A stretch of DNA of 64,000 bases from Candidatus Peregrinibacteria bacterium CG2_30_44_17 (lineage in GTDB: Bacteria > Patescibacteriota > Gracilibacteria > UBA1369 > UBA12470), in contig MNZJ01000012.1 in the NCBI GenBank assembly GCA_001873565.1, forward strand, positions 439-64,438, read 5' to 3'. Both the position numbers and the translations under genes were made by a program. Shown here piece by piece: positions 10,324-28,819 of this stretch (within the stretch, counting starts at the first letter, position 1; the number at the start of each line of letters is the position of its first letter). The notes under the pieces were generated by a model. It saw only the letters and a list, made by a program, of their open reading frames with translations, was not told the origin of the DNA and ran no database searches.

Positions 10324-11097
10324 ATGCCTGTCGCTTTGGCCAAAAAGATGGCGGACTTGAGCCTGAAAATGCCGATAGCCTTCGGGACGGGGCGCATCAT
10401 GGAGCACCTCCAAGGTCATATTGAGCAAATCCTAAGATTCTCAAAAGATCCTGAGACAACAAAAAAGAACTGGTACATCATCGGAGAGAACGGCGGAGCA
10501 GGACATTGGTACAACCCTGATTCTAAGTCTTACGAGGAGTTTTATAGAGTCGATTGGGACAGCAGTTTGATCGATAGGCAAAAGCTCAAGGCTCTTATCT
10601 CGAAAGAGGCTAAGCAGCTAATAGAGTCAATCAGTATAAATCAAACGCAGTTTCTAATTAGACCGTACCGAGAGGGTGTGCCAATTGGGCAAGTCGCCAA
10701 AAACACCGCGAAAATCAAAGAGATCGCAGACACAATCATGAGATCTTACAAAGGGCATAATGAGTTTGAAGTCTTGGATTCCAGTATCGCAGTACATATA
10801 AACCCAAAAACCGCCAACAAAGACCTGGGGGTCCGCATGTATGCAAAGCTGCTTTCCGCGAAGCTGGGGATACAGTCAGGAGAATCTGCAAGAGATATCA
10901 TGGTTATTGGAGATCAAGCAGGGCCGGGCAGGAACGACTACGAGTTCTTAAAAGGAGACATCGGAACGCCATTCACAGTCGGAGATTTGGACCACGTGGC
11001 GGAGTGGCCATTACCTGTTTTTGATGGAGACAATGTTATAAAAGGTCCTGAAGGGACGCTATATCTTATAGAGAAGGCAAAATTCGGCTTGCGCTAA
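10324..11097 (+). CDS. HAD-superfamily (IIB-like) phosphatase; the true N-terminus very likely lies upstream of the first ATG
   Basis: Motif IV-like VIGDQAGPGRNDYEFL lies inside the ORF. The catalytic motif I (VIFDIDGT) is encoded in-frame at 10276-10299, upstream of the annotated ATG, with no ATG/GTG/TTG between the upstream stop (10171) and 10324. Confidence 0.7.
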   Translation: MPVALAKKMADLSLKMPIAFGTGRIMEHLQGHIEQILRFSKDPETTKKNWYIIGENGGAGHWYNPDSKSYEEFYRVDWDSSLIDRQKLKALISKEAKQLIESISINQTQFLIRPYREGVPIGQVAKNTAKIKEIADTIMRSYKGHNEFEVLDSSIAVHINPKTANKDLGVRMYAKLLSAKLGIQSGESARDIMVIGDQAGPGRNDYEFLKGDIGTPFTVGDLDHVAEWPLPVFDGDNVIKGPEGTLYLIEKAKFGLR

Positions 11098-11184: not shown

Positions 11185-11874
11185 ATGACGCAGTCAAATG
11201 AAAATGCTCGATCATACGAGCTTATGCTGGTACTAAAAGCTGACAAAGGCGACGATGCTATCCAGCAGCACGTGGCCGATATCAAGAAACTAATCACCGA
11301 TCTGGATGGTGACGTTTTCTTCGAGGACGTATGGGGTCGTAGAGAGCTTACATACAGAATCAGGAAAGAAGGCGCAGGTTACTACGTTGTACTCGATTTC
11401 AACATTGATGGTAGCAAACTCAAAGAGATCAGTGATCACTTGCGTATAGATCAGATGATCTTGAGGAGCTTGCTTACTAAGACACCTGATGGCTACAAGC
11501 CAACGGCAATTACGGAAGCAGATCTCGAATGGACCAAGAGGATTAAGAAAGATGACGAAACTGAGGAGAAGGAAGAGGAAGCTGAAAAGCCTGTAAAAGA
11601 GAAAGCGGTACGCAAAAAACCAGAAGTAAAAGAAGAAGTAGTAGCATTGGAGCCACGGGCAGAGGAAGAAGAGGTTGTCGAAGAAGCGCCGGAGGCTGAA
11701 GAAGCTGCTCCCGAAGTCAAGGCAGAGGAAGAAGCGCCAGAGGAAGCTCCTGCGAAAGAAAAAAAGAAGGAGAAAAAAGCTCCTAAGGTAGAGGACGAGA
11801 AGAAGACAATGGACGACCTTGATGAGAAGCTCAAGGCGATCATGAATGATACGGATTTGGATATTAGCTTATAG
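11185..11874 (+). CDS. rpsF: 30S ribosomal protein S6 with a roughly 120-aa acidic/lysine-rich C-terminal extension
   Basis: YELMLVLKAD...WGRRELTYRIRKEGAGYYVVLDF forms the core, followed by an EEKEEEAEKP...EEAPAKEKKKEKK tail. Confidence 0.9.
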   Translation: MTQSNENARSYELMLVLKADKGDDAIQQHVADIKKLITDLDGDVFFEDVWGRRELTYRIRKEGAGYYVVLDFNIDGSKLKEISDHLRIDQMILRSLLTKTPDGYKPTAITEADLEWTKRIKKDDETEEKEEEAEKPVKEKAVRKKPEVKEEVVALEPRAEEEEVVEEAPEAEEAAPEVKAEEEAPEEAPAKEKKKEKKAPKVEDEKKTMDDLDEKLKAIMNDTDLDISL

Positions 11875-11909: not shown

Positions 11910-12344
11910 ATGAGGACAGTTAACAAAGTAATTCTAATAGGAAACCTAACACGCGACCCTGAGCTGAAAGAGACTCAGAATGGTCAAAAAGTAGTCACTT
12001 TTGGTGTCGCTACAAACAGAGAATGGACAACCAGCACGGGTGACAAGCAGGAATCTGCAGAGTTCACGGAGTGTGTAGCTTGGTCCAAGCTTGCTGAGAT
12101 ATGCGCGAGTCTGCTGACAAAGGGCAAACTTGTTTACGTAGAGGGATATTTGAAGACAAGATCTTGGGATCAGCCTGATGGGACTAAGAAACACAGGACA
12201 GAGGTTGTAGTCGAGGACATGGTTATTTTGGAAAAAAGGCAAGGCAGAGCCGGAGGCGAAATGATGAATGATAACGACGCATCAATGATGCCTGCGCGCG
12301 ACGAAGAAATGCCGTTGGACGACGACCTCTCTTTCGAAGGATAA
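11910..12344 (+). CDS. ssb: Single-stranded DNA-binding protein
   Basis: NKVILIGNLTRDPELKETQNGQKVVTFGVATNREW OB fold, with an acidic C-terminal tip PLDDDLSFEG. Confidence 0.9.
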   Translation: MRTVNKVILIGNLTRDPELKETQNGQKVVTFGVATNREWTTSTGDKQESAEFTECVAWSKLAEICASLLTKGKLVYVEGYLKTRSWDQPDGTKKHRTEVVVEDMVILEKRQGRAGGEMMNDNDASMMPARDEEMPLDDDLSFEG

Positions 12345-12382: not shown

Positions 12383-12580
12383 ATGAAAAAATGCCGATTC
12401 TGTAAAGAAGGTATAAAGCACATCGACTACAAGAGAATTTCTCTCTTGAGGCCACATATTACGAGCTTTAACAAAATACAAGCACGTAGATATAGTAACC
12501 TCTGTTTGAACCACCAGAAACAGATGTCGAACGCAGTAAAAAACGCACGAATTGTTGCACTGCTTCCTTTTGTGCCGTAA
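12383..12580 (+). CDS. rpsR: 30S ribosomal protein S18
   Basis: KKCRFCKEGIKHIDYKRISLLRPHITSFNKIQARRYSNLC...AVKNARIVALLPF, in the canonical rpsF-ssb-rpsR order. Confidence 0.9.
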   Translation: MKKCRFCKEGIKHIDYKRISLLRPHITSFNKIQARRYSNLCLNHQKQMSNAVKNARIVALLPFVP

Positions 12581-12773: not shown

Positions 12774-12782
12774 TGGTAAAAT
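12774..12782 (+). promoter_or_regulatory. Extended -10 element TGGTAAAAT upstream of the 12.8-21.3 kb operon
   Basis: tgtggtaaaat lies 24 nt upstream of the ATG at 12806, downstream of a T-run at about 12744-12750. Confidence 0.35.
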
Positions 12783-12805: not shown

Positions 12806-13294
12806 ATGACTGAAAGGAATTACCCACACGACACAACGCTACTGCAGTGGAAAGCACCGGAGTACGTTAAGTACCAAAAAGGACCTATCTGGACAACGAT
12901 AGCAGGTTCAATGACGGCTGCTTTGATAGCTTATGGAATACTCAGTGGATCGTGGAGTATGGCGGCTGCGTTTTTAGCATTGTCTCTGGCTTATTACGTC
13001 CAGCACAAACAGGAGCCAAGAGAAGTGATCATAGAGATAACAGAGCTGGGAATCAAGGCCGCAGGACAGCTGTATGCATGGAGTCACATGAGGGCGTTTT
13101 GGATAATTTACGAACCACCAATCGTCAAGACTGTGCATCTAAGATTTGCAAAGAAGCACAAACAAGATTTGATATTGCAACTTGGAGATCAGAGCCCGGT
13201 AGAGGTACGAAAAATGCTCTTATCTCAACTCCCGGAATGGGAAGGCAAGGAAGAGGCTCCTCTTGATGCTCTAGTTAGAGCTTTAAAACTTTAA
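12806..13294 (+). CDS. Hypothetical 2-TM membrane protein (first gene of the orphan operon)
   Basis: 162 aa with two adjacent hydrophobic helices (IWTTIAGSMTAALIAYGIL / WSMAAAFLALSLAYYV), then a soluble beta-rich domain. Confidence 0.6.
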   Translation: MTERNYPHDTTLLQWKAPEYVKYQKGPIWTTIAGSMTAALIAYGILSGSWSMAAAFLALSLAYYVQHKQEPREVIIEITELGIKAAGQLYAWSHMRAFWIIYEPPIVKTVHLRFAKKHKQDLILQLGDQSPVEVRKMLLSQLPEWEGKEEAPLDALVRALKL

Positions 13295-13300
13295 AAAAAT

Positions 13301-14818
13301 ATGGCAGACGATCAAGGTAAAAAATTAGACAGAGTTCTCGAGCAGTCGGGCGAAAGCGCGGAAGAAAAGTTTAAAAAAAGAAGCAAAAGCCTGATAGGAA
13401 GGAACATCGTTGCGATGCCAAAAGGGGATTACGTTGCAAACGCTGTCCAAGATGAATTCAAGGACGACGTGGCACGCTTGATGACTGCGAATCAGATCGA
13501 GCTTAATAACAAGCATGAATCCGAGGCATCTTCCGCGACGTCTCAGTACGAAACGGCGCGCAAACAGATTCGCGATAAGTACAAGGAAGAGCTTACCGCA
13601 CTTCACAACAGATACGTGTCTGTGATGAAAGCTTATGGCAACAAACAGGGAGAAAAGCGCACAATTGATACAAAAGAGGAGGTTTATGAATTTACGAGAT
13701 TCGGGTTCGCAATGCTCAAAAACATGAACCTGCCGGAACTCGTCAACGCTGTCGGCGAAGACATGATTTACAGAGAGGCTGACGAAAAAGACAAGAAGAT
13801 GTTCCCGGTTATCGACAAGTTATCGCAAGGACAGAATTTGGAGCCTCAAGACTATTCGGATATTGCGGAAAGAATGACTAATTTGAGCGAAATAGACCTG
13901 AGCAACCTGAAGATAGACCAGAAAAAAATGGACGAAACACTTAGCACGATATCAAAAACAACTGTGCTATCTGCCGCGATGCTGCTTGATGAAGGACAGA
14001 GATTTGAGTTGGCTCAAGCACTTGTAAGAGAACATGGAGAAAAAGGAGCAAAAATAGTCCATGAGCTTACAAAAATGGGGTACTTCACCGCTGTTCAAAC
14101 GGAGGAGATCTTCGATAAATATTACACTACACCCGGAGCAGCTAGAAGCATGCACGAAAAGGCCGCAGCAGACGGCACATACGCGAGAGGTCAGCATGAA
14201 ATGGCGGAGCTTAGGGGAGAAGCCGTAGAGGGTCTGGATAAGTGGTTCCATAAGAACTTCGCGAATCATTCTTTGTCATACAAGAACGTCATCAACTACG
14301 AGATTATAGCGAGAGCTGCATTGGCGGTGGCGGTATTGAATATAGTCGTCAATCTCAAGAATAAAGACCCGGAAGCGGTACTGATGAATGTACCTATGTG
14401 GGGTGGTCTGGCTGCCGGAGCTTATATCTACAACGATGTGACTCAAGGAGGAGTGGAGAGAGCTTTGACAAAAGAAACAGATGTGGAACAGAGAAAGCGA
14501 GAAAAGAAGGAAATGGAGAGAAAGTTCAAAGAGAATTTCACGAGTCATCCGCAGTTGGCTAATTGGTTCGAGAACAATCTCGACGCGGTTAACACTGGAT
14601 TCACGGTGGCAAATCCAAAGAAAGAGAACGGTCCTTACACGATCACGCCGGAAGCTATGGGCGTTTCTAGTCCTGGAGAGAAAGATGGTAGAAGTGAGGA
14701 TCAATGCATACAAATAGTCAGTTCATGGCACAGGCTACTTTATTTCGATTTGGACAAGAAAACGGTGCAAGATCAGAAGACGTACATAGACGATGTCCTA
14801 CATAAACAAATAAATTAA
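13301..14818 (+). CDS. Hypothetical coiled-coil protein with a central TM hairpin (orphan operon gene 2)
   Basis: 505 aa. The start is 6 nt after the previous stop. Hydrophobic pair: IIARAALAVAVLNIVVNL and MWGGLAAGAYIY. Confidence 0.65.
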   Translation: MADDQGKKLDRVLEQSGESAEEKFKKRSKSLIGRNIVAMPKGDYVANAVQDEFKDDVARLMTANQIELNNKHESEASSATSQYETARKQIRDKYKEELTALHNRYVSVMKAYGNKQGEKRTIDTKEEVYEFTRFGFAMLKNMNLPELVNAVGEDMIYREADEKDKKMFPVIDKLSQGQNLEPQDYSDIAERMTNLSEIDLSNLKIDQKKMDETLSTISKTTVLSAAMLLDEGQRFELAQALVREHGEKGAKIVHELTKMGYFTAVQTEEIFDKYYTTPGAARSMHEKAAADGTYARGQHEMAELRGEAVEGLDKWFHKNFANHSLSYKNVINYEIIARAALAVAVLNIVVNLKNKDPEAVLMNVPMWGGLAAGAYIYNDVTQGGVERALTKETDVEQRKREKKEMERKFKENFTSHPQLANWFENNLDAVNTGFTVANPKKENGPYTITPEAMGVSSPGEKDGRSEDQCIQIVSSWHRLLYFDLDKKTVQDQKTYIDDVLHKQIN

Positions 14819-14820
14819 AA

Positions 14821-15786
14821 ATGGCCGAACTTGATCCTACAACAAGGAGAGTTATGGAAGAGAGGCTTATGCCAGCGGCAAAGAATCTACTCGGGAATAG
14901 AGGCAGCTCCGAAGTGCAGCAGCTACTAAAAGCCGGCGAAAACGCAACGGCGGAACAGAAGAAGAAAATCGCCGAAAAATACCTCGCACCTTTCTTCGGA
15001 GAGGGGTCGGAATATGGTGATATTTTGCTCGACGAAATATTAAAAATAGCATCAGACCAAGCAAAGCTTGATGCCGTAGACAAAGCCCTATCCAACTCAC
15101 CTGTTAACGCAAGTATAGATTTTAATCCAAACAAATTTTTGGAAAGAGCCGCAAGGCAGATGACAGGGAACTACGAAGGTACTGAGAATCCGAATTCCGG
15201 CAAAGACATAGACAAGATTCTTGCTCCGATGACTACGCCTACGCAAGATTTAAAAGGCGAGCAGGAGACCGATGGAAGAGCGAGAACACAGTCAAGAGTG
15301 GAGATCCAGGAGCATGAAGCGGGAGTTCCGGTTCCGCCTCCACCACCTCCGCCGGGGTTCAAAATCACAATTACGGAAGAAGAGGAAGGCGGGGAGGACT
15401 ACATAGGAGGCCAGATGGAAGGCTCAAAAGCGCAGGATCAACCCGATTCCGCGATGCCTGGTGCGGACGCAAAAACAGCTCGAGAAGCGAAGAAAGAAGG
15501 CTTAAATAAAGATAAAAAACGCGAAAAAGACGCATCGTACAAGGACGAAATGGCGGAGAACATACAGCAGCAACAGCATATGGCGGCAGCGGAAGTAGCG
15601 AGAGGCGAGGCGGAAGCAGCAGCAGAAGCGGAGCAGGCGGAAATGGACAAGAAAAAAGAAGGCACAACACTTGTTGGAAAACTAAAACACCCGGCCGTAT
15701 TAGCCGGCTTGACCGTAGGAGGCGCGGCAGCAGGAATAGGTAGTTTGTTGGGTCTTGATTACGGCGTAAACACATTATTCTCATGA
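14821..15786 (+). CDS. Hypothetical tail-anchored protein with a poly-Pro tract and charged low-complexity region (orphan operon gene 3)
   Basis: 321 aa. It starts 2 nt after the previous stop. Contains VPVPPPPPPPGF and a C-terminal TM, HPAVLAGLTVGGAAAGIGSLLGL. Confidence 0.6.
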   Translation: MAELDPTTRRVMEERLMPAAKNLLGNRGSSEVQQLLKAGENATAEQKKKIAEKYLAPFFGEGSEYGDILLDEILKIASDQAKLDAVDKALSNSPVNASIDFNPNKFLERAARQMTGNYEGTENPNSGKDIDKILAPMTTPTQDLKGEQETDGRARTQSRVEIQEHEAGVPVPPPPPPPGFKITITEEEEGGEDYIGGQMEGSKAQDQPDSAMPGADAKTAREAKKEGLNKDKKREKDASYKDEMAENIQQQQHMAAAEVARGEAEAAAEAEQAEMDKKKEGTTLVGKLKHPAVLAGLTVGGAAAGIGSLLGLDYGVNTLFS

Positions 15787-18074
15787 TGAAAAAATCAGAA
15801 AAAATCAGCAGATTCGCGCAGAGCTTAGCCGCTAGAGCAGTTCCGATGATGATTATAAGCTTCGTACTTGTCGGGGTTCTCTTCCCGGACACAGCTTTTG
15901 CGGCTAGTGACGAGCTAGACAAAGCCCTCCTTAAATTGCAGCAGACTATCAATGTAGGGTTTGGACTGGTCCATGCTACGTTCTGGCCTATTCTGCTTAT
16001 GATAGGAAGTTTGATGGACAACGATCTGATTTTTGGGCCGGGAATTGGAGAGAGGCTTAGAGAGATATGGGTTATAATGAGGAATATAGTGAACATCGCA
16101 TTCGTATTTTTGCTTTTGGTGGTGGCTTTTTATAATGTTACGGGCTTGGGAGGAGAAGGTAATTTCGCGCTTAAGACAGTTTTGCCGAAATTCGTACTCG
16201 CTTTGGTGGCGGTAAATTTCTCATTCTTGGCATGTAAAATTATTCTCGATGCGGCCAATGTTGTGTCGATGGCGGTATACGACATCACAGGGTCAATCGA
16301 GGACTACGATGCGAGCGAAATCAAATCGCAGATGGAGTACATGCTATGTAACGATCCAACGACGATATCTAATACGGGGGCGGGTACAACTGTCACTACC
16401 GCAAGTTCGGCATCCTCAAGCGGAACGGACAGCGCTGCAGCAGCCGAGTCATCTTCTTCCGAAGGATGGAGCTACAAGAATGCGAATCCAATCTCAAAAG
16501 CTTTCTGCTGTTCGTCTAATACGGAGGGAGATGAAACTTGTACAACGACAGGAGAGACGCCACAAACAATAACTGCATCTAAAGCAGACACGGAAGACGA
16601 GCGCAAAATTTTCGGGGCGTTTAATGACGCGGGGAAGAGTTTTTTTCGGCAAGTTGACCAGAACAATATAGGTATAATCATGGCCATCAACCTTGGAAGT
16701 CTTAATCACTTAACCGAGGTTGCAAGTAGTAAAACAGGGGTGGGCATTAAGGATCTTCCCATCAACACTCTCTTCTCAATATTGATGTACGTCGTGTTCG
16801 GTTTTGCATACGTGGCGCTGTTTATAGTGCTGCTGGCGAGACTGGTAGTCTTATGGTTCGTAATAGCATTGTCTCCGCTGATAGCGCTGACAATGGTAGT
16901 GCCACAGATCAATCAGTACGCATCAGAGCTTAATTTGACGGAAAAATTCATGCAGCATTTAATAGCTCCTATCATCATAGGACTATCGATGTCGATAGGC
17001 TATTTGCTTACCGATAAAATCAAATCGGAAGGGGCTGCAGGAATAGATATAGGTGGTATCGGTAATAGCAGCGTTGAGTCACTTACGGATGCCGGAGGTG
17101 CCGGTACATTTCTGGCTCCAAACGTCAGCGATCTGCAACAGCTAATGATTATATGTATCGCGGTCGCGGTTGTGTGGCTTGGCGTATTTGGCGCAGCGGA
17201 CAAGACGATTGCCAGTTCGGTTACCAGCCCGATCAAAGAGTTCGGTACCAAAGCGGCAAAATTCCTGGCAAAGCTTCCAACTTACGCTCCTATCGTACCG
17301 ATCATGACACGGGAAGGAGAGCAAGCGAAGCCTTACAGTTTTGCCGAAATTACGGGGGTCTTAAAAACGCTTACCGACAAGCCTGAACAATGGGCAAGTG
17401 ATAGAAGGAGAAACCTAGAGATAGAACTTGGTATAACTAATCCGGTTACACCTGAATTCGAAAAATTATTGCAGAAATACAAGGCAAGCACAGGTACTAA
17501 GAATGATAAAGCGGAGGTTGTCAAAACTATGCTTGGAAACATAAGAACAGACGCCGATTACAAGGAGTTTAGAGATAACGTACTTACGCCTGCCGGGATT
17601 AATGCACCTCAAACGCGAGACTCATTTGATAACTGGTATGCGGGTGAAGGATATAAAGAGTTTAATAAACAACTTGATCCGACAAGTCCATTCACAGGCA
17701 CTGAATATACGGACAAGACAGGGGCGAAGAGCGGAGAAATGACTCAACAACAGAGCATAGCTCAATTCAATACGTTGTACTCAGGTAGCGCTACAGGCGA
17801 CACCAAGGAAGCAAAAGTTGGAGCTGCCGCGGACAAGATGATCGCAGATAAAAAAGTCGATGATCCGGCCAAAAAAACTGATCTGACAGAGTTGCTGTCC
17901 AGAGTTACAAATGATGACGGTAGCATCGACGAAGCCAAAATGAAAAGAATGAGATTCGACCCTCAGGGAAGACTAATGATCGCCGCATCATTGAAGGAAA
18001 TACCTGCGCCTGGACAAGGAGGTGGCAGTGACGACGGCGGTAGTGGCAACCCTTCAGACGGCCCTGCCGAGTAA
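15783..18074 (+). CDS. Hypothetical polytopic membrane protein, TrbL/VirB6-like architecture (orphan operon gene 4)
   Basis: 763 aa, with an ATGA overlap to gene 3. It has a signal-like N-terminus ending TAFAASDE, at least 8 hydrophobic helices, a Ser/Thr/Cys-rich loop (TTASSASSSGTDSAAAAESSSSE...CCSSNTEGDETCTTTGE), and a hydrophilic 280-aa C-terminus ending in a Gly-rich tail. Confidence 0.7.
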   Translation: MMKKSEKISRFAQSLAARAVPMMIISFVLVGVLFPDTAFAASDELDKALLKLQQTINVGFGLVHATFWPILLMIGSLMDNDLIFGPGIGERLREIWVIMRNIVNIAFVFLLLVVAFYNVTGLGGEGNFALKTVLPKFVLALVAVNFSFLACKIILDAANVVSMAVYDITGSIEDYDASEIKSQMEYMLCNDPTTISNTGAGTTVTTASSASSSGTDSAAAAESSSSEGWSYKNANPISKAFCCSSNTEGDETCTTTGETPQTITASKADTEDERKIFGAFNDAGKSFFRQVDQNNIGIIMAINLGSLNHLTEVASSKTGVGIKDLPINTLFSILMYVVFGFAYVALFIVLLARLVVLWFVIALSPLIALTMVVPQINQYASELNLTEKFMQHLIAPIIIGLSMSIGYLLTDKIKSEGAAGIDIGGIGNSSVESLTDAGGAGTFLAPNVSDLQQLMIICIAVAVVWLGVFGAADKTIASSVTSPIKEFGTKAAKFLAKLPTYAPIVPIMTREGEQAKPYSFAEITGVLKTLTDKPEQWASDRRRNLEIELGITNPVTPEFEKLLQKYKASTGTKNDKAEVVKTMLGNIRTDADYKEFRDNVLTPAGINAPQTRDSFDNWYAGEGYKEFNKQLDPTSPFTGTEYTDKTGAKSGEMTQQQSIAQFNTLYSGSATGDTKEAKVGAAADKMIADKKVDDPAKKTDLTELLSRVTNDDGSIDEAKMKRMRFDPQGRLMIAASLKEIPAPGQGGGSDDGGSGNPSDGPAE

Positions 18075-18097
18075 TTCTAAGCACTCAATCGAACCGA

Positions 18098-21000
18098 ATG
18101 TTCATAAAAACCATATACAATTTATTCGAAAGTAAAAAATCACTACTACATAGTGATAGATTCTTGTATATGGCTGGAGGAGGAACTGGAACACCGGGAG
18201 GCGGAGGAACTGATGACCAAGGAAGGCCGGTGACGGCGGACGACCAAGGCCAGCCGGATTTGGAAACAGAGGGACTGGCGGGAGCGGAGGCAGCAAAAGC
18301 TGCAGCCATAGACGATTTATCTAGGATCAAAAGCAGTATAGCGGCCATCGATGTGAACAGTAACAACGGCGAAATATTCAGCGAATTCGACGACTCGATT
18401 TTGGAAATCGCAGATCATGATTACAATATCAAGTATTTGCTTTGGTTACAGAAATTGATCGAAACAAAAGGTAGAACCACCAGATGGTTCTTGCCACCGG
18501 AGATTGCAGGAAAAATAGGAGGACACGTCAATGAGATGACAGCATTATATCAACGGCTTAATGCAGGAGCAGGTCAGCCACAGCATAATTTTGATGCATT
18601 AAGACTGGATGATAAGGCGGTAAGAAAAGAAGCAGTAAGCGCCATTAGAGACCTTATAGGGCAGACCAAAGATGCTCGCGAGAAAAGCAGACAAAAACTG
18701 CTCGACAGAATAGACGCGACATTAATGACGACGATAGACGGGATCGAAAGCAGGGATATAGATGACGGGAAGAAAGATGCTCAGAAGAAATTGGTCAAGT
18801 CAGCACGCAAGACATTGGTGGAAGTAAAAGCAAGCAGCAAGCCTTTTGAGACACAGTACAATGACAGGATTAAGATATTGGAATATCTCAAGACGCACGA
18901 TGCGATGCTATGGGAGAGCGAACAAGACAAGGCGACTTTCGAGGCGGACAAGGAGTCCTTGACCCCGGAAGGACTTAGAGCAAAGATCAAAGATTTGCGA
19001 GCAAGGAAAGCGGCAGAAGTAGATCCATATTTGGCTCAGATAAAAACTAAAGCTGACCAGCTGGAAGCAAAAGTGGATGGCAAAGTCAGACGTGCTATTG
19101 AGGAAACGTTTAAAGACAACGATTCTCTGCGTGGAGAGCATTTAAAAAGGCTTGATAAAGTTAAAGAACAACTCGAGGGCTGGAGAAATATCAACTTTTT
19201 TGACATAGCTTTTGGAACAGGATCAGTCGATTTGGCAAGCATGATAGGTTCCGACGGGAAGATGCTTTCTGACGAAGATTTGAAAAGCAAAAACATCTCA
19301 CCGGGAGCGGAAGACTGGATCGCCTTATCGGAGGCACATGGTGTGTCTGAAGATGTACGCAAATCAGCATTATTAACGGCTGCAGACATGCTTATGGTTG
19401 CAGAGAAGACGATGGGCAGACCGAAGGAGGTGCTGGACATGACAATGATGGACTATGACAAAGAGATAGACAGATACATAACCAATATTACCGAAGTAGG
19501 AGAGCCACAAGGAGGATATACGATATATTTCCTTTCGCTCTACGACTTCAAACACATGGGTGAGAAGCTTGTTGAATGGGCAAAGAGGAAATACAACAGG
19601 CGTAGTGATAATCTGCTAGGCCGCTTCGGAGTATCGCTGCTTAGTGACTTGCCGGGCCCGCTCAAAACTGCGGCAAACGAGTTCGACAGATTGAAAGAAC
19701 AGTCCGAGCTTGATGAAGTTAATCAATACAAGGAATCTTATTCGAACAAAGACGCGTGGCAGGTCATTGAAGTAATGCACAATACGAGAAATCAGGACGA
19801 AATGAAAGCATGTATGTACCTATTGGCGGATTTAGGGCGTATCAGATGGGACGACCCTCAGATATGGAGACAACTTATGTATTTTGGTCATGGAGCGATC
19901 CAGTTCGATACGGAGAACCCTGAAAACGAAGTAAGGAATCAGGGTAGGCTCCATGAAAAACTACAGAAGATAGTAGGTGTGATATGGGATTTTGATACAT
20001 TCCAAACTTGGCAGAGTACAAACGAGTCGAACTACTCGTCAAAGATGGAAAGTCACAAAGATTTTTGTGACAAAAATGCTGAGTCAGAAGGTACATTAGA
20101 TCTCGTTTTGAAACAGGATCTTGAAAGTTTCAAACGTGATATTACGGCTGGCAAAGTACCGAAGATTGATCCGCAGAGATTTGAAAAGATGATCCACTAC
20201 AATATCGAGTTTGGAAAAGGTTCGCCGGAAGGCAAGTTGTATTACCTTATACAAGGTATAGCATGCGGACTTCTTTCAAGAGATACTGCGTCACGTATTA
20301 ATAGTAAATGGATTAATGCATATCCTGTTATTGACGTATTTGGATCTGAAACAGAGGCTGGTAGTAAGCCTACGATGGATGATATACGCAGATGGGCAAA
20401 ACTGGATGGTGACAAAAACGAGCCGGATGCGGCTTTCCACCACTGGTTCTATACATACGTTATGCACAGGCCAAGGGTTTATCAACGTGTCGACAAAGCT
20501 CTGACTCAAGGTATGGGACAAGACCACGATGATGCCACATGTTGGTTCGGTGCGATGAGTGCGAACACCGCGAAAACTATTCTTAGTCAAAATGCGCAAG
20601 GTTTCCGTATGCCTATGACAGGTTATCAGAACGCCACGGTTGGTATGCTTCACTACTTGGATACCATTATGGAAGGCTATCCGGAAATGGGTGAAGATCC
20701 AAGAGATGAGACGAGCGGATACAGTCAAATTATTAGGTTTGCAAACATGTTCACAACATTCGATGGTATTACCGCTGGAAGAATGTTTAAGGAAAGAACG
20801 GACTTCTTTAAGTGGAACGGAGAAGAAGAAAGGCATCCCAGATCCGATGGTGTATACAAAACAGCTTACGGGCGGAACAAGATGACTACTCAAAACTATC
20901 TCAACACTATGCGTGGATATCTGTCAGCCCTAGAGCCGGAATTCTTCGATTTTCTATTCCATTCCCAGTCCAAAACCAATGACCAAATACAAAAATTCTG

Positions 21001-21310
21001 TCAAAAGAAGCAAGAAGAGTACGGAGTCACAGATCTATTTGGCCCAGGAGGAGTTCCTCAAAATGCAGACCAACTACATCAGTCAGTATCAACCTTCCTC
21101 AAGTTCGTATTAGCCACTACAGAAGGCAGAGAGAGAATAAGAACCATGAGGGCATCAGTCATACAAGATCATAGGTCATGGGAAGCAGCTCAGAAGCGTG
21201 AATCTTCATCGTTCCTGACCGTTAAAGAAAGGGTCGCAAAAGCTTTGGACAAGCAAGTAGAGCCTACAGCTCATGGTGGAGTGCACGTTCCAACTCAGCG
21301 GCACTCATAG
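18098..21310 (+). CDS. Hypothetical 1070-aa soluble protein with a Gly-rich disordered N-terminus (orphan operon gene 5)
   Basis: Long uninterrupted ORF. An alternative ATG lies at 18170 (MAGGGTGTPGGGG). I saw no TM and no Walker A. Its 3' end overlaps the thrS 3' end by 47 nt. Confidence 0.7.
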   Translation: MFIKTIYNLFESKKSLLHSDRFLYMAGGGTGTPGGGGTDDQGRPVTADDQGQPDLETEGLAGAEAAKAAAIDDLSRIKSSIAAIDVNSNNGEIFSEFDDSILEIADHDYNIKYLLWLQKLIETKGRTTRWFLPPEIAGKIGGHVNEMTALYQRLNAGAGQPQHNFDALRLDDKAVRKEAVSAIRDLIGQTKDAREKSRQKLLDRIDATLMTTIDGIESRDIDDGKKDAQKKLVKSARKTLVEVKASSKPFETQYNDRIKILEYLKTHDAMLWESEQDKATFEADKESLTPEGLRAKIKDLRARKAAEVDPYLAQIKTKADQLEAKVDGKVRRAIEETFKDNDSLRGEHLKRLDKVKEQLEGWRNINFFDIAFGTGSVDLASMIGSDGKMLSDEDLKSKNISPGAEDWIALSEAHGVSEDVRKSALLTAADMLMVAEKTMGRPKEVLDMTMMDYDKEIDRYITNITEVGEPQGGYTIYFLSLYDFKHMGEKLVEWAKRKYNRRSDNLLGRFGVSLLSDLPGPLKTAANEFDRLKEQSELDEVNQYKESYSNKDAWQVIEVMHNTRNQDEMKACMYLLADLGRIRWDDPQIWRQLMYFGHGAIQFDTENPENEVRNQGRLHEKLQKIVGVIWDFDTFQTWQSTNESNYSSKMESHKDFCDKNAESEGTLDLVLKQDLESFKRDITAGKVPKIDPQRFEKMIHYNIEFGKGSPEGKLYYLIQGIACGLLSRDTASRINSKWINAYPVIDVFGSETEAGSKPTMDDIRRWAKLDGDKNEPDAAFHHWFYTYVMHRPRVYQRVDKALTQGMGQDHDDATCWFGAMSANTAKTILSQNAQGFRMPMTGYQNATVGMLHYLDTIMEGYPEMGEDPRDETSGYSQIIRFANMFTTFDGITAGRMFKERTDFFKWNGEEERHPRSDGVYKTAYGRNKMTTQNYLNTMRGYLSALEPEFFDFLFHSQSKTNDQIQKFCQKKQEEYGVTDLFGPGGVPQNADQLHQSVSTFLKFVLATTEGRERIRTMRASVIQDHRSWEAAQKRESSSFLTVKERVAKALDKQVEPTAHGGVHVPTQRHS

Positions 21311-23277: not shown

Positions 23278-26200
23278 CTACATCTCTTGCAGTTTCATCA
23301 CAAGAGTGATGATTTTTGCCATCTCGCCCAGAGCTATAGTACGTTCGGGACGCATATAGCCATCTCCATAACCAGATACGATGCCTTGCGCATAAGCATG
23401 AATCACGTAAGGCGCATACCAAGCATCGATGTCTACGTCGGGGAATGGGTTTGCTGGCAAATAGTAGTAATCCAAAAGAGCATCTCCATAGAGTGTCTCA
23501 ACATCATCATGCGTAATCAAAAAAACTATCTTAAGAGCTTCGGCTCTGTTGATAGTCCAGTTAGGATGGAAAGTGCCATCGGGATACCCCTGGATGATGC
23601 CGTTTTCATAAGCGGTGATTATGTACTCGGCGCCTTCGTCATATATCGTCATATCCAAAAAAGGCATGTAAGTCGCTTCGGAAACGACGTTTACGTCGAG
23701 CAGATCCATCGCCGCCTCGAGGAACTCAATGCGACTCATCTGCTCCTCCGGATCGAAGAGGTAGCTGATAACTTGAGACTCGATACTGTCGCCGGAAGCA
23801 GACTCGTTTATTTGATTAATAAGTGTGTTCTCATAAAAATCTTTCAAGTAAGGCTCGGCCCAGTGGCCGTTAAGCTGTGACACGACTTCCGTGTTCCATG
23901 TGGATTCAAAATCGTTAACAACTTCAGCGACATCGTCTGTCGGCGGCACTTCAATCTCGACCTCGACTTCAACCTCGGCGACTTGATCATTATTGGAAGA
24001 CGAACCGCCTCCGGTATATGTGTAGGTATTCCCGAAGCCGGCTCCTCCGCCGGTTGGACTGCTGCCGGAAGATGAGCTGGAGCTTATAATGAAGCTGCGA
24101 CCACCGGAATTAACGGAGTTGCCGTACGAGTCTAGCGCCATAACATAAACGGCATACATGGCGCCGGAAGTCAGCCCTGTCATCGGTGCCGTACTTGTAG
24201 CCATGCCGGAGACATCTCCATAAAGAGTGTAGCTGCCGGCCGTTGAGAGCTTGTAATAAATCTGATATTTGTCGAAATTGCTTTCGGTAGTCACAGGGAT
24301 CCAGACCAAATTGAGAGAAGTCGATCCGACGGAACTCGCGTATATGGTACTGGTAAATCCACCGGAAGGCGCGACTTGGTCCAGTACGAAAGCGTCGGAT
24401 GTAAGTATGCTGCCGACTTCGGTGCCATCATAAGGGGTAACACGGATTTGCGCATTTGATATATCGGCAGTGCCAAGATCGGAAGCAGCGTCCCATACGG
24501 CGGTGATTGTGTTGTTGCCGGAAGAGGTTGTAACGTACCCGGTGGCATTACCGATTTGGTAAGTATTGTCGTTTTCAACATCGGGAGTGCCATGAGTGGC
24601 GGCTATGTCGGAAACAGTCTCGGAAATTGTAGCCTTCACCCAAGAGCTGCCAACATTGTAATAAACGCTGAATTGTAAAGTGTCATCGTTGTCCGAGTCG
24701 CCGGCGATGAACGATAGATTAACCTTGCCGTTGCCATTGGTTGTCTGTGCCGCAGTGAGTGACGAAGCGGTGGGAAGGCCGTTATTATTAACGGAAACAG
24801 TAGTTGATTGAGCGGTATTGCCATAGCCGTCGATAGCCCAAATCCTCAGATAGTAAGTGGATCCTCCCATAAGTCCGGTAATTGTCGTAGTGGTAGTGCC
24901 GGCGGTACTCAAATTGCCATCATTGCTGTTGTCCCACTCGGATGCGGTTCCCGTGCGATTCTCAACATCGCTTTGATTGGTGCCGTACCAGATCTCATAA
25001 TGGTTGAAATTTGTGTCGCTTGCGGCATCCCAACTCAGAGCTATCGTAGTGGATGTGTTTGCTGTCGATTGGAAGCTGCCAAGACCCGTAGGCGCGCTAT
25101 TGTCTATGATGAATGTGGAAGAGGTTTGGGTTGTTCCCGTGCCAGTACCGTCATAAGGTGTGATGCGTATTTGGGCGCCGGAAGTGTCGGCGGTAGGTTC
25201 ATCGGTTTGAGAAGTCCATCCCGCACTAATCGTATTAGCGCCGGAAGAGGTTGTGATATATCCTGCCACATTACCTATTTGGTGCACATTGTCGTTCTCA
25301 ACATCGGGTGTACCGTAAGTGGCGGTCGTATCAGCGAGACTCTCGGAGATGGTTGCCTTGTTCCATCCGGCTCCGATATTGTATTCGACCAAGGCTTGCA
25401 ACGTGTCATCATCGTCATCGTCATCGATGGTAAATTGAACAGTCACTTCGCCGGTGCCATCGGTTGCGGAAGAACCGCTCACGGAGCTTGCGACAGGCTC
25501 GGTATTGAACGACCAATTCAAATTGTTCCCAGCGTCAACGGATCTTGCGGAATCGACGGCGTGAACGATCGCGCTTCCGCTACTTGCGTCGGAGTCTTTT
25601 ACGTTTACATAATCTACGGAAGACGAGCCGGAGACGTTCAAGGACCACTGATTGCCATCGGAATCACTGCGGAGAGTAATAAGATCTCCGGTGCCACCGG
25701 TTAGGGTTAAAGCTCCGGCAACGGTTTGAGTCCCGGTGTTGGAGAACACCAGTGGTTTACCCGCCTGCGTACAAGACAGATTATAAAAAGTCGTAGATCC
25801 TGCAATATTGCCCGTGGCGGTGGTTGTAAAGTTGACGCTGCCACTGTTGTGAGAAAAAGTACCGCCTGTGCTGTCGAAGCTGCCACCCAGATTGATAGTA
25901 GGTGGAGCTGTCATAGTACCGCCGGATACTGTGAGGCTACCATTTACGGCAAGTGTTGTAATGTCAACAACGACCTCATCCGTCGTATCTCCCCCTGCGA
26001 GTATGGCAATTTGATCAGAGGTCAAAGGGGCGTCATACACCCTGACGTCATCGATGAGACCGTCAAAAGCCTCTGCGTATCCAGGACTCTTGCCGATAGC
26101 GACGTTATTGGCGGAAGTATCGTAAGCTATCGTAGCGGTTGTGGCGGCAGAACCGTTGAGATAAAATGTAGTACCTACTCCGGGCTCGTAAACCACGGCT

Positions 26201-28656
26201 ACATGCTGCCAAGTCCCGGCAGTAACGGTCTTCCCTGTAGTCCAAAATCCTGCACCCGTAGGTATTATCCAATTGGAACCACTACGATAAATACCCCAGT
26301 CGAAGCCGCCGTTGTCAGTACCGATGACAGCATGATTCCCACCCGACGTTGTCTCCGGCTTAACCCAGGCGGAAAACGTAACGCCTGTTGTTCCGGAAGA
26401 TTGGTCGATGTTCAAACTCGTATTGATGATGTCGGTTCCGCCATCAAAATCCCAGCTTTGAGTGTCGGCGAAATTCAACGTTGGGACGTCAGCATTCGGA
26501 CCTTCCGGGGCGATAATATTGGAAGGGGTCCCGGTGTAAGCACCTGCGCTGTCGGCAATAGAGCCGGCGCCACCGATCGAGGATTCATCGAGTTTCCAAT
26601 ACGCAATCAGGTTGTCGTTTAGTGTTCCGGGAATGGTTCCGGAATACGTCACTATATCATTAGCATCGACAGGGTCGATAACCAGATTGTAATAAGACAT
26701 GTCTTTGAGAATCCATGTGTCGGCAAGTCCGTCACTGTCGCCAACATAAGTGAAAGTGCCGGAATTACTGTCGAATCCCCCCGTACCGCTGAAATTCAAG
26801 GTTTCATCGCCTTGGATTTGGAAGTTGCCGTCATTGCTAAATACACCATTAACCGTAAAGTTGTAGCTGTTGGTGAAAAATGTGCCGGCGGTAATAGTCA
26901 CATTGCCTGAGATGCTTTTGGTAGTACCAATCTGGAATATTCCACCAGGACCATTGATTGTAAGGTTGTCGTAATTCCAATTCTCTATAGTGGTCGTCCC
27001 TGATGTCTTGGTGTAAACGACAGTGCTGCCGGCAGCTAGCTGAGGGTAGCCGCCATTGGTCGTGATGGTCTGACCTCCTTGTAATTGCAAAGTCGTTCCA
27101 CTGTTTATAACAAAAGTTCCACCGGATCCGTTCACAGTCAGATCGTATCCTGCCAAATCCAAAGTGCCTGAGGTAAGAGTCAAATCTTGGCTGGCAGCAT
27201 CCATAACCAAAGCACTGCCAAGGGTGAAAGTGCCGGAAGTTTTATTTATCGTGATGTCGGTATTAATAATCCCCGTATTGCCGAATGTGGCGACCTGATC
27301 GTTTGTGCCGGTGAAATTGTAGGTGACAAGTGAGTCGTCGAATCCGGCAAGCATGGTGAAGTCCCCTTGAACAGTAACGTTGTTGCTATTGTTTATTTTG
27401 CCGTTGTTCAGAGAAAGCGTACCTTGCACGGTAATAGGCTCACTATTTAGATATAGCCAATTAGTATCAAGACCAAGTTCAACCGTAAGATTGTTAAAGA
27501 CGGTACTGTTGGGATTGATCGTGACATCTCCAGTGCGATCAACCTTTACGGTTCCGCTGCTGTGGTTAAAAGTACCGCTGGTGTGATTGAAGTTTTGTGC
27601 TAACTCCAGAGTGCCGCTTGTAGAATTGAAGACGGCGGAAGCGCCGTTGATGGTCAGGATGGCATCGAAATTGAGAGTACTGTCACCGCCGTTGAAAGTC
27701 CCGCCGGTCTGGTTGAACGTGCCGGATGTAAAAGCGAAAGTCGTCGCAGGGCTTACAGTATAAGTCCCGGAAGTTAATGTAAAATTGGCATTTTGAGTGA
27801 GGTTGCCGTTTTGAGTGACGGTACCGGAAGCTTTGTTAATGGTGATCGGGTGGTCGAAATTGCCTGTAAAACTGTTATTAAAAGCCTGATCGGCTGTGCC
27901 GGAGAATAAGATGGTGGTGGTGCCGATGTCGTAATCCGCGCTCACATTAACGGCAGGACCTGTCATTGTTAATGTATTACTCATCATATTGCCGTTATTC
28001 AAGTTCAGAACATTGGTAACGGTCAAAGCGTTGCTATTGTTTATAAAGAAGTTATTGGCGCCGTTAACAAGTTCCACAGTCAAGTTGTACAGGGTGGTCC
28101 CGCTTGCATTCGGATTAATCACAACGTCTCCACTTGTGCGATCAATTTTGACGGTTCCGCTGCTGTGGTTGAAAGTGCCACTGGTGTGATTAAAGCTGCC
28201 GCCACCAAGCTGCAGAGTACCGCTGGTGGAATTGAAGACGGCTGAAGCGCCGTTAAGAGTCAAATTGCCATTGATATCTATGGTGCCGCTACCTCCGGAA
28301 AATGTGCCGACATCTTGCAGGAATCCATTACCGCCAACAGTGATGGTGTAAGTGGAAGTTTGAGTTATCGTACTCGTGTATCCGGTATTGATGTCAAAAC
28401 CGGCGACATTGACATCGGCATCTATGTTGCAAGGAGTGTCACTGGTGGCGTCGAATGTTGCGATATCGTCTGAATCGGGTACTACACCAAGGCTCCAGTT
28501 ATTGGGGTTGTTCCAGCTATTGTCGGCATCGCTGTTGTCCCATGTGTTGATGGCTACTGCGGAGACGGACCGGATGCACAGAAAAACGCCGATAACGACA
28601 ATCGGAAGCAGTTTTATAAGTATACGAATTCTTGGGAGTATGAATAATGAGTGCAT
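23278..28656 (-). CDS. Giant cell-surface protein: signal anchor, beta-helix-like repeats, LamG/ConA-like domain, two (novel module + FN3) units, Ser-rich and EV-repeat linker, C-terminal SLH domains
   Basis: About 1790 aa from ATG 28656 (MHSLFILPRIRILIKLLPIVVIGVFLCIRSVSA). Repeated GTFNHSSGTVK[IV]DRT units. LamG-like ...FDGLIDDVRVYDAPLTSDQI. FN3-like ...IALSWDAASDTNFNHYEIWYG...STYYLRIWAIDGYGN. SLH-like YPDGTFHPNWTINRAEALKIV and FPDVDIDAWYAPYVIHAYAQGIVSGYGDGYMRPERTIALGEMAKII. Confidence 0.85.
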   Translation of the reverse strand: MHSLFILPRIRILIKLLPIVVIGVFLCIRSVSAVAINTWDNSDADNSWNNPNNWSLGVVPDSDDIATFDATSDTPCNIDADVNVAGFDINTGYTSTITQTSTYTITVGGNGFLQDVGTFSGGSGTIDINGNLTLNGASAVFNSTSGTLQLGGGSFNHTSGTFNHSSGTVKIDRTSGDVVINPNASGTTLYNLTVELVNGANNFFINNSNALTVTNVLNLNNGNMMSNTLTMTGPAVNVSADYDIGTTTILFSGTADQAFNNSFTGNFDHPITINKASGTVTQNGNLTQNANFTLTSGTYTVSPATTFAFTSGTFNQTGGTFNGGDSTLNFDAILTINGASAVFNSTSGTLELAQNFNHTSGTFNHSSGTVKVDRTGDVTINPNSTVFNNLTVELGLDTNWLYLNSEPITVQGTLSLNNGKINNSNNVTVQGDFTMLAGFDDSLVTYNFTGTNDQVATFGNTGIINTDITINKTSGTFTLGSALVMDAASQDLTLTSGTLDLAGYDLTVNGSGGTFVINSGTTLQLQGGQTITTNGGYPQLAAGSTVVYTKTSGTTTIENWNYDNLTINGPGGIFQIGTTKSISGNVTITAGTFFTNSYNFTVNGVFSNDGNFQIQGDETLNFSGTGGFDSNSGTFTYVGDSDGLADTWILKDMSYYNLVIDPVDANDIVTYSGTIPGTLNDNLIAYWKLDESSIGGAGSIADSAGAYTGTPSNIIAPEGPNADVPTLNFADTQSWDFDGGTDIINTSLNIDQSSGTTGVTFSAWVKPETTSGGNHAVIGTDNGGFDWGIYRSGSNWIIPTGAGFWTTGKTVTAGTWQHVAVVYEPGVGTTFYLNGSAATTATIAYDTSANNVAIGKSPGYAEAFDGLIDDVRVYDAPLTSDQIAILAGGDTTDEVVVDITTLAVNGSLTVSGGTMTAPPTINLGGSFDSTGGTFSHNSGSVNFTTTATGNIAGSTTFYNLSCTQAGKPLVFSNTGTQTVAGALTLTGGTGDLITLRSDSDGNQWSLNVSGSSSVDYVNVKDSDASSGSAIVHAVDSARSVDAGNNLNWSFNTEPVASSVSGSSATDGTGEVTVQFTIDDDDDDDTLQALVEYNIGAGWNKATISESLADTTATYGTPDVENDNVHQIGNVAGYITTSSGANTISAGWTSQTDEPTADTSGAQIRITPYDGTGTGTTQTSSTFIIDNSAPTGLGSFQSTANTSTTIALSWDAASDTNFNHYEIWYGTNQSDVENRTGTASEWDNSNDGNLSTAGTTTTTITGLMGGSTYYLRIWAIDGYGNTAQSTTVSVNNNGLPTASSLTAAQTTNGNGKVNLSFIAGDSDNDDTLQFSVYYNVGSSWVKATISETVSDIAATHGTPDVENDNTYQIGNATGYVTTSSGNNTITAVWDAASDLGTADISNAQIRVTPYDGTEVGSILTSDAFVLDQVAPSGGFTSTIYASSVGSTSLNLVWIPVTTESNFDKYQIYYKLSTAGSYTLYGDVSGMATSTAPMTGLTSGAMYAVYVMALDSYGNSVNSGGRSFIISSSSSSGSSPTGGGAGFGNTYTYTGGGSSSNNDQVAEVEVEVEIEVPPTDDVAEVVNDFESTWNTEVVSQLNGHWAEPYLKDFYENTLINQINESASGDSIESQVISYLFDPEEQMSRIEFLEAAMDLLDVNVVSEATYMPFLDMTIYDEGAEYIITAYENGIIQGYPDGTFHPNWTINRAEALKIVFLITHDDVETLYGDALLDYYYLPANPFPDVDIDAWYAPYVIHAYAQGIVSGYGDGYMRPERTIALGEMAKIITLVMKLQEM

Positions 28657-28819
28657 ATTTAGGGTACAATTTAGTAAAAAACACTCGCTAACAATATCAT
28701 TTATGCGGTATCGAAGCAAAAAAATATATGTATGGAAACGAGATCGACGGTAGTATGAACAGGCCATAGCGTGAACACGCCATAATTGACTTTCGCGGAG
28801 GTCTCGTTAATCTAATGAC

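Follow-up and report, generated by a model that had tools for sequence, protein, structure and literature searches.

We analysed a stretch of 64,000 nucleotides from Candidatus Peregrinibacteria bacterium CG2_30_44_17 (contig MNZJ01000012.1, positions 439 to 64,438), referred to below at its full length as the window. It contains five consecutive open reading frames (ORFs) on the + strand, here called g1 to g5, and we propose that the fourth of them encodes a VirB6-type protein of the kind found in type IV secretion systems (T4SSs). A preliminary description of this DNA had read the five ORFs as a tightly coupled operon lying just downstream of rpsF-ssb-rpsR. Their positions, sizes, strand and junctions, as well as the three genes upstream, are confirmed by the sequence (Table 1): g1 and g2 are separated by 6 nt, g2 and g3 by 2 nt, g3 and g4 overlap in ATGA, and 23 nt lie between g4 and g5. 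Homologues of g1, g4 and g5 keep this order in over 80 species, and g1 to g5 are thus real genes rather than chance ORFs.

The hydropathy profile of the g4 protein has eight hydrophobic segments and a Ser/Thr/Cys-rich central hydrophilic loop of about 150 aa, in which two cysteines (C189 and C253) are invariant. A helical, Cys-free C-terminal domain of about 250 aa follows, and the helices carry the invariant polar residues R100, N104, N145, D156 and R353. This arrangement fits the feature list published for "extended VirB6" proteins, namely at least five hydrophobic helices, central and/or C-terminal hydrophilic domains and 700-900 aa (PMC12857230); in the R388 system most of the hydrophobic VirB6 helices are not membrane spans (PMC12857230). 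A word-index search gave 108 homologues of g4, and an exhaustive HMMER search with the g4 profile matched 898, 2,582 and 12,165 representatives at E <= 1e-30, 1e-10 and 1e-3, respectively. The 12,165 representatives in the tail at E <= 1e-3 are the size of a superfamily, and all of the 150 profile matches that were listed are close family. TrbL matches within the g4 family are sub-threshold (2 of 41 members, best E 0.007; the member P0089 at E 0.038), and precomputed TrbL_3 matches are only "faint".

The link to VirB6 is transitive and runs through P0107 and P0108, the two most distant matches of the first g4 search, which plain HMMER found at E ~1e-5 in 5.8 billion sequences. When the alignment and profile of the g4 family (A1) was compared with them by hhalign, P0108 scored 98.3% (E 2.3e-14, g4 columns 39-171) and P0107 97.5% (E 7e-12, g4 89-401). 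Both alignments run collinear for 129-196 columns, and it is conserved polar and aromatic residues that carry them, not hydrophobic ones alone, with the motifs W..R..NI.F, K..LP, VN.S, D..N and ARLV.L....SP in common. P0108 carries an unmarked, that is strong, precomputed match to PF19590 (TrbL_3) together with a sub-threshold TrbL match (E 0.0096). P0107 comes from a locus in Paceibacteria with the packed gene order ksgA, TSP3 secreted protein, 533-aa protein, P0107, Pro-rich 394-aa protein, 188-aa transmembrane (TM) protein and PrgI. Its PrgI/VirB3 gene matches PF12666 at 40.9 bits against a cut-off of 27, and ksgA with PrgI/VirB3 is typical of the T4SS locus in the candidate phyla radiation (CPR), according to Quinonero-Coronel et al. 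(PMC12102498). On account of the TrbL_3 match of P0108 and of the place of P0107 beside PrgI, g4 is in all appearance a very diverged VirB6-type protein of the CPR/monoderm branch, homologous to its better recognised relatives at the level of profiles. Its extreme divergence fits the report of a phylum-wide survey that VirB6 is "absent" from class Gracilibacteria, "suggesting extreme sequence divergence" (PMC12102498). The preliminary description had guessed a TrbL/VirB6-like layout for the polytopic member, and the profile homology to VirB6-type proteins of CPR T4SS clusters bears this guess out.

Some observations on these relatives may be added. A tblastn search of P0108 against 72,556 plasmids gave no match. 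The 394-aa protein encoded directly after P0107 (L087, 9224-10408) joins a small domain at its N-terminus to a very long tail rich in Pro; it is like the Pro-rich g3 in composition, with no sequence similarity detected. In two metagenome contigs with a GC content of 0.36-0.38 (L099, 9776-12244, and L101) a g4-like gene is broken by in-frame UGA under code 11 and forms one ORF of 822 aa under code 25; no g1 homologue was found upstream of it in L099. As this ORF is intact only when UGA is a sense codon, the g4-like family reaches UGA-recoded lineages of the Gracilibacteria/Absconditabacteria type.

Conservation of the gene order was assessed by a scan of one genome per species of the Genome Taxonomy Database (GTDB), which gave 106 relatives and 80 loci that were kept; the order was counted by iterated hidden Markov model (HMM) searches on 83 non-duplicate loci. 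The g4 homologues come almost only from Candidatus Peregrinibacteria/Peribacteria and from metagenome-assembled genomes (MAGs) labelled "Patescibacteria group", and several loci carry the submitter title Candidatus Gracilibacteria. Relatives only 30-45% identical, with a g4 that is 33-44% identical to that of the window, keep the same five genes between rpsF-ssb-rpsR and the convergent thrS-recF. By BLAST, homology holds position by position for g1, g4 and g5, while g2 and g3 diverge fast. A g5 homologue directly follows g4 in 64 of the 66 loci with room and g1 lies upstream of g4 in all 59; between g1 and g4 there are two ORFs (g2 and g3) in 48 of 71 loci and one ORF in 22. Outside the operon, rpsR is found upstream in 50 of 53 loci and thrS downstream in 45 of 56. 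Junctions across the loci are 0-25 nt or overlapping. The operon is thus a core, vertically inherited feature of Peregrinibacteria/Peribacteria. The preliminary description had regarded the coupled genes as one unit and had proposed synteny in relatives as a check; the order, kept across the 83 loci at about 30% identity, together with the tight junctions and with fusions of g3 to g4 (see below), backs that claim. Together with the persistence of the order between very different flanks, these features argue for one physical complex. A mobile-element or phage origin is ruled out by the fixed chromosomal place, the even composition across the operon region and the vertical inheritance. Two contigs of a single MAG (JACRIB01; L046 and L062) each carry a full g1...g4-g5 set, which may reflect either a true duplication or the binning of two strains into one MAG.

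A more distant arrangement is found in a sister lineage, represented by P0104-P0106 (E 1e-28 to 1e-32 in the first g4 search) and nine further metagenome loci, and flanked by prfA and gyrB unlike the loci of Peregrinibacteria. It has a g1 homologue (E 5.6e-50), a 743-776-aa protein at the g2 position, a Pro/Gln-rich mini-g3 of 68-95 aa whose C-terminal tail is hydrophobic, and a g4 homologue (E 4e-79), and g5 is absent from its loci. In five of the six loci with room the next gene is convergent and encodes an ATPase of 841-870 aa. This ATPase has an N-terminal TM helix, the Walker A sequence GKSGTGKST and matches to TrwB_AAD_bind (34.7 bits, cut-off 20.5), DUF87 (34.5 bits, cut-off 23.2) and TraG-D_C (E 0.001), from which it can be recognised as a type IV coupling protein (T4CP); sub-threshold NCBIfam matches are to TraD, VirD4-like and CedD. 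In a third arrangement (L075 and L083) the genes g1 to g4 are flanked by a nucleotidyltransferase gene and have neither g5 nor an ATPase adjacent. The sister lineage and this third arrangement show that the conserved core is g1-g2-(g3)-g4, with g5 and the adjacent ATPase as lineage-specific neighbours. At least three lineages carry the set g1-(g2)-(g3)-g4, an ancient module whose genes are inherited together.

Among the small partners of g4, g1 is the best conserved. Its family alignment (A4) shows a conserved W-x-A-P-E-Y motif at the N-terminus ahead of a two-helix TM hairpin, which is followed by a PH-like beta-rich domain and by a helix at the C-terminus. DUF6232 is matched by 17 of 41 family members (best E 9e-5), with scattered matches to DUF3093, DUF5673 and bPH_7; the g1 of the window itself has no Pfam match at E <= 1, and a search of PDB sequences with the family profile returned coiled-coil or chance matches only. 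We consider g1 to be PH-like or DUF6232-like, judging by its family, and not a complete orphan. It was also considered as VirB3/PrgI and rejected: hhalign against a bona fide PrgI gave 3.7%, only 3 of 41 members match Pfam VirB3 (at E 0.019), and about 90 aa at the C-terminus of g1 form an additional domain.

The g2 protein is a fast-evolving helical, coiled-coil protein with a central hydrophobic hairpin, in which an Asn (N347) is nearly invariant; hydropathy places a central hydrophobic segment at 334-352. Homologues of it were recognised by sequence in 47 loci, and nearly all loci have a protein of 450-690 aa at the g2 position; no recurrent Pfam family was seen among 28 members. The protein at this position in the sister lineage has the position and the Asn-bearing hairpin in common with g2, and homology between the two is not demonstrable (hhalign 5.6%). 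The g3 protein consists of a small N-terminal domain, a PPPPPPP tract, acidic and Lys-rich low complexity and a Gly/Ala-rich hydrophobic C-terminal tail (292-310). It is variable and is lacking from about 30% of loci. From locus to locus, both the central hydrophobic segment of g2 and the hydrophobic tail of g3 are seen repeatedly. Among the g4-profile matches listed, two proteins (P0135, 1328 aa, and P0146, 1257 aa) are fusions of g3 to g4, in which the N-terminal domain, the low-complexity linker and the Gly/Ala-rich hydrophobic tail run directly into the N-terminal helix of g4. These fusions make a plain in-to-out span unlikely for the g3 tail; were the tail a true TM span, the topology of g4 would be inverted in them. 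N-terminally extended g4 ORFs of 945-1328 aa are also found in L075 (9221-12058) and L054 (8453-12262), besides P0135 and P0146, and those of L054 and L075 are likely to be g3-g4 fusions as well.

The largest protein, g5, has a disordered Gly-rich N-terminus and a variable coiled-coil region, so that its N-terminal 470 aa are variable and disordered or coiled, and a conserved all-alpha core of about 420 aa (approximately residues 475-895) with the motifs DExKAC, RWDD, GK and DHDD (809-812). Family members range from 1000 to 1450 aa. No hydrophobic TM segment, P-loop or signal sequence was found in it. The AlphaFold2 (AF2) model, made from an alignment of 6 sequences, is all helices with a predicted local distance difference test (pLDDT) score of 64, falling below 50 for residues 1-63. 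Word-index searches gave 6 proteins, low-complexity words saturating the candidate list. The window protein and seven other members have no Pfam or PDB sequence match, a search of PDB sequences with the family profile giving coiled-coil or chance matches only, and Foldseek against PDB returned generic alpha-solenoids only (TM-score ~0.1). We regard g5 as an orphan limited to the main Peregrinibacteria lineage and, from its lack of TM segments and signal sequence together with its gene position, as a presumed cytoplasmic scaffold or adaptor. Two other identities were rejected for it, a relation to the 776-aa protein of the sister lineage and a degenerate P-loop ATPase of a T4SS. The latter does not agree with the lack of a Walker A motif, the all-alpha model and the failure of the g5 profile to match the sister-lineage ATPase (E 0.3).

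Several further statements of the preliminary description can be settled at this point. Hydropathy is in broad agreement with the topology that had been drawn by eye for g2, g3, g4 and g5. The statement that at least four of the five proteins have no recognisable family signature holds for g2, g3 and g5, which are orphans by Pfam, NCBIfam and PDB sequence search, but not for the VirB6-type g4 and the PH-like/DUF6232-like g1. No Walker A motif of the form GxxxxGK[ST] occurs in the five ORFs, as had been read. The lone match to the looser [AG]xxxxGK[ST] is AFNDAGKS at g4 279-286, and since it is not conserved among homologues (K is kept in 16 and S in 9 of 41) it is a chance match.

The surroundings of the operon are those of a housekeeping region. 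The upstream neighbours are lexA, mutS, a 257-aa hydrolase-like gene, rpsF, ssb and rpsR; downstream follow the convergent thrS, an 1829-aa LamG/fn3/SLH surface protein, recF, a PrsW protease and uvrA. The 3' ends of thrS and g5 overlap by 47 nt, which leaves no room between them for an intrinsic terminator, and thrS abuts or overlaps the end of g5 in many relatives too (e.g. L005, L008 and L010). The rpsF product has 229 aa, about twice the usual length of S6, with a long Glu/Lys/Ala-rich C-terminal extension, and the S6 proteins of relatives have 170-261 aa. The 257-aa protein is without a Pfam match in the window and has a faint Hydrolase_3 match in relatives; about ten related loci keep it in the same place between mutS and rpsF. 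The 1829-aa surface protein has LamG, fn3 and C-terminal SLH domains and two long internal repeats ("...TISE.. ATYGTPDVENDN.. QIGN..GY.TTSSG.NTI.A..."). Further downstream lies the gene of another SLH protein, of 443 aa, and L003 also has large SLH proteins on the flanks of the operon. An IS5-type DDE transposase gene (DDE_Tnp_1 and DUF772) is the only mobile-element gene seen in the window. In the spacer between rpsR and g1, the extended -10 element that had been described, TGGTAAAAT, is present where it was placed, but it has no -35 hexamer and a consensus promoter scan does not list it. The promoter and terminator scan found no + strand terminator between rpsR and g1. Given both results, transcription from a promoter of its own at TGGTAAAAT and read-through from rpsF-ssb-rpsR are equally possible.

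Table 1 Features of the operon and its surroundings. Positions are those of the window; empty cells denote values not given.
Feature	Positions	Strand	Length	Remark
257-aa hydrolase-like protein	10324-11097		257 aa	between mutS and rpsF
rpsF	11185-11874		229 aa	upstream of g1
ssb	11910-12344			upstream of g1
rpsR	12383-12580			followed by the 225-nt spacer that ends at g1
TGGTAAAAT	12774-12782	+		possible extended -10 element, inside the 225-nt rpsR-g1 spacer
g1	12806-13294	+	162 aa	TM hairpin and PH-like domain
g2	13301-14818	+	505 aa	coiled coil with central hydrophobic hairpin
g3	14821-15786	+	321 aa	Pro-rich, hydrophobic C-terminal tail
g4	15783-18074	+	763 aa	putative VirB6-type polytopic protein
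g5	18098-21310	+	1070 aa	all-alpha orphan
thrS/g5 overlap	21264-21310		47 nt	convergent 3' ends
LamG/fn3/SLH surface protein	23278-28767	-	1829 aa
IS5-type DDE transposase	37046-37993
Second SLH protein	57308-58639		443 aa

The explanation that we favour, and to which we give about an even chance, is that the operon encodes a membrane complex built around g4, as the cytoplasmic-membrane translocon or platform part of the chromosomal type IV secretion-like machinery of CPR bacteria. As described for Saccharimonadia and surveyed throughout the phylum, this machinery comprises VirB4, VirB3/PrgI, VirB6, TrsD, a T4CP and VirB2-like pilin arrays and is related to MPF-FATA (PMC12102498; PMC12857230). 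In such a complex g4 would oligomerise in the membrane as VirB6 proteins do, and g1 with its TM hairpin and PH-like domain, the TM-hairpin coiled coil g2 and the Pro-rich g3 with its hydrophobic tail would assemble on the g4 oligomers. The C-terminal domain of g4 together with g2 and g3 would offer a large cytoplasmic face, on which g5 would dock as a scaffold or substrate-recruiting adaptor. An ATPase of the T4CP and/or VirB4 kind, with its gene elsewhere in the genome, is assumed to supply the energy. By analogy with the Saccharibacteria, where T4SS genes are essential for the epibiotic growth of Ca. Southlakia epibionticum (PMC12102498), the machine would move macromolecules or build a surface structure for contact with a host cell. 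The operon is best regarded as neither a wholly new apparatus nor an ordinary annotated system, but as an extended VirB6 that has diverged very far, accompanied by three to four partners not yet described.

A number of results weigh against this explanation. The g4 protein of the window matches no Pfam or NCBIfam family above threshold, and a search of PDB sequences with its family profile gave coiled-coil or chance matches only. The Foldseek comparison proposed in the preliminary description was run on the models of g4 and g5, with no significant PDB match for either; for g4 (AF2 model, pLDDT 76) there was none at E <1, and the match with the top probability and the lowest root-mean-square deviation, to the R388 inner-membrane-complex chain 8rtd_H/I, falls short of significance (E 3.7, probability 0.15, TM-scores 0.12/0.31). 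hhalign of A1 against R388 TrwI gave 0.2%, and hence no link to proteobacterial VirB6; this negative direct comparison is the reason why we place g4, as very diverged, with the CPR/monoderm branch. The best stretch of that alignment, insignificant as it is, falls on the g4 helix 330-372, which sub-threshold Pfam TrbL matches in the family also cover. PF19590 was not returned for P0108 in our own Pfam run, so that its TrbL_3 label is a precomputed annotation, and the contigs of the P0107 cluster end before any VirB4 could show. The parity of the g4 helix count would put the loop with the cysteine pair inside, in conflict with the conservation of that pair; the Cys-free C-terminal domain and the pattern of cysteines suggest the opposite orientation. 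Furthermore, described T4SSs offer no counterpart to g1, g2, g3 and g5, g5 stands where the sister lineage has an ATPase, which could equally mean that the ATPase was replaced, and a fixed place among housekeeping genes is unlike that of mobile T4SSs.

The remaining points of this kind concern the ATPase. A VirB4-family ATPase is the one universal hallmark of T4SSs and is usually encoded near the other components. We found no VirB4, VirD4, PrgI or other secretion ATPase in the 64-kb window, and no VirB4, T4CP, PrgI or recognisable T4SS gene within ±10 kb in the 83 Peregrinibacteria loci. Searched with a profile of five sister-lineage ATPases, the window gave no match better than E 0.1 and the 83 loci none better than E 0.5. 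The preliminary description had thought an ATPase-less machine plausible. The lack of an ATPase is confirmed for the operon, the window and the ±10 kb around the 83 loci, but is not established for the apparatus as a whole, the g1-g4 module of the sister lineage lying beside a T4CP. In Patescibacteria, T4CP homologues are present in 2,918 of 3,035 genomes, mostly far from virB4 and other T4SS genes, and VirB4 in 2,417 of 3,035 (PMC12102498). From this distribution of T4CP genes it is likely, by analogy, that the T4SS ATPase is encoded elsewhere in the genome. The preliminary description had also proposed an undescribed apparatus; one unrelated to the known kinds is not supported, the operon belonging to the type IV secretion-like world of CPR bacteria.

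It is possible, if doubtful, that g4 was exapted from VirB6 into a core housekeeping envelope complex that works independently of an ATPase, with g5 in place of the coupling ATPase, as a platform for the assembly of a surface layer, a pilus or an attachment organelle or for the uptake of host material. In the sister lineage, where g5 is absent, the position downstream of g4 is held (convergently) by the T4CP, and the module of L075/L083 is beside neither. The lack of any ATPase near the 83 loci is what such a complex would have, as are the fixed place among rpsF-ssb-rpsR, thrS, recF and mutS and the single-copy vertical inheritance. The soluble parts of g2 and g3, the C-terminal domain of g4 and g5, which together make up the greater part of the predicted mass, have no signal peptide and are Cys-free, like a cytoplasmic scaffold, and SLH surface proteins are encoded nearby. 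However, no VirB6-type protein is known to work without a VirB4-family ATPase (established T4SS knowledge; PMC12857230, PMC12102498), homologues of T4CP and VirB4 are nearly universal among Patescibacteria and often lie away from their partners (PMC12102498), and g5 has no enzymatic or energy-coupling signature of any sort. A broader version of this idea, which we consider rather unlikely, would make the VirB6-type protein the centre of an essential ATPase-independent envelope machine. Four proteins found nowhere else (g1, g2, g3 and g5) would then form a new cell-contact or uptake apparatus, and the same g1-g4 core would be the long-sought membrane partner of the nearly universal "orphan" coupling ATPases of CPR bacteria.

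That the operon is an unrelated new secretion or cell-contact apparatus, in which the likeness of g4 to VirB6 is convergent or an artefact of hydrophobic helices, is improbable. The collinear, polar and aromatic matches to P0107 and P0108 are hard to reconcile with it at E 7e-12 and 2.3e-14, the more so as plain HMMER found the same two proteins in 5.8 billion sequences, and both the PrgI gene beside P0107 and the T4CP beside the sister module in five of six loci speak against it. It would nevertheless agree with the failure of all five window proteins to reach a curated model, with the lack of significant structural matches for g4 and g5, with the 0.2% for R388 TrwI and with the four of five proteins that have no T4SS counterpart. 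Finally, the five genes might be mere neighbours in a stable chromosome region and not one functional unit. Order alone is weak evidence here, given that mutS, rpsF, ssb, rpsR, thrS and recF are also syntenic, and g3 is missing in about 30% of loci and g5 in two lineages. The order g1-g2-g3-g4 persists all the same with wholly different flanks (prfA and gyrB, or the nucleotidyltransferase of L075/L083), the junctions are 0-25 nt or overlapping and g3-g4 fusions occur, and we therefore find this reading scarcely credible.

The first machinery shown to be indispensable to CPR bacteria in their epibiotic life is that of the type IV secretion-like genes. Outside Saccharibacteria its composition is still patchy, and the phylum-wide survey of 2025 reported no VirB6 in this class. 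The g4 protein is a strong candidate for the missing VirB6 of Gracilibacteria. This VirB6-type protein travels with three to four conserved, undescribed partners, among which g5 represents a large orphan family with a conserved 420-aa core, and the sister lineage links the module to a coupling ATPase of a kind that is almost universal yet unexplained in CPR. The operon would thus bear on the exchange of material between ultrasmall bacteria and their hosts.

In order to place the operon we compared it with known systems. The closest to g1 are the membrane-anchored PH-like proteins (DUF6232, DUF3093, DUF5673 and bPH), in which a PH-like beta domain likewise comes after a TM hairpin. No function and no link to secretion is known for these families, and the g1 of the window stays below every threshold. 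The R388 VirB6 protein TrwI, a pentameric stalk base (PDB 8rtd), is the top Foldseek match of g4 by probability, not significantly so, and differs in having 342 aa and neither the central Cys loop nor the C-terminal domain. By description g4 resembles the "extended VirB6" of monoderms (MPF-FA, PMC12857230), its 763 aa falling within 700-900 and its helices, loop and C-terminal domain being of the same kind, although those proteins are encoded on conjugative elements beside VirB4, VirD4 and a relaxase. With the chromosomal T4SS-like system of CPR bacteria there are differences as well: no VirB4, PrgI, TrsD, pilin array or hydrolase was found in or near the operon, g1, g2, g3 and g5 are not among the described components, and g4 is so diverged that the HMMs of the survey reported VirB6 absent from the class. 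Both are nevertheless chromosomal, non-mobile, vertically inherited and located near housekeeping genes; both have a VirB6-type polytopic protein, g4 being homologous at the profile level; the homologous module of the sister lineage has a coupling-protein ATPase beside it; and components of the system are dispersed in class Gracilibacteria according to the survey (PMC12102498).

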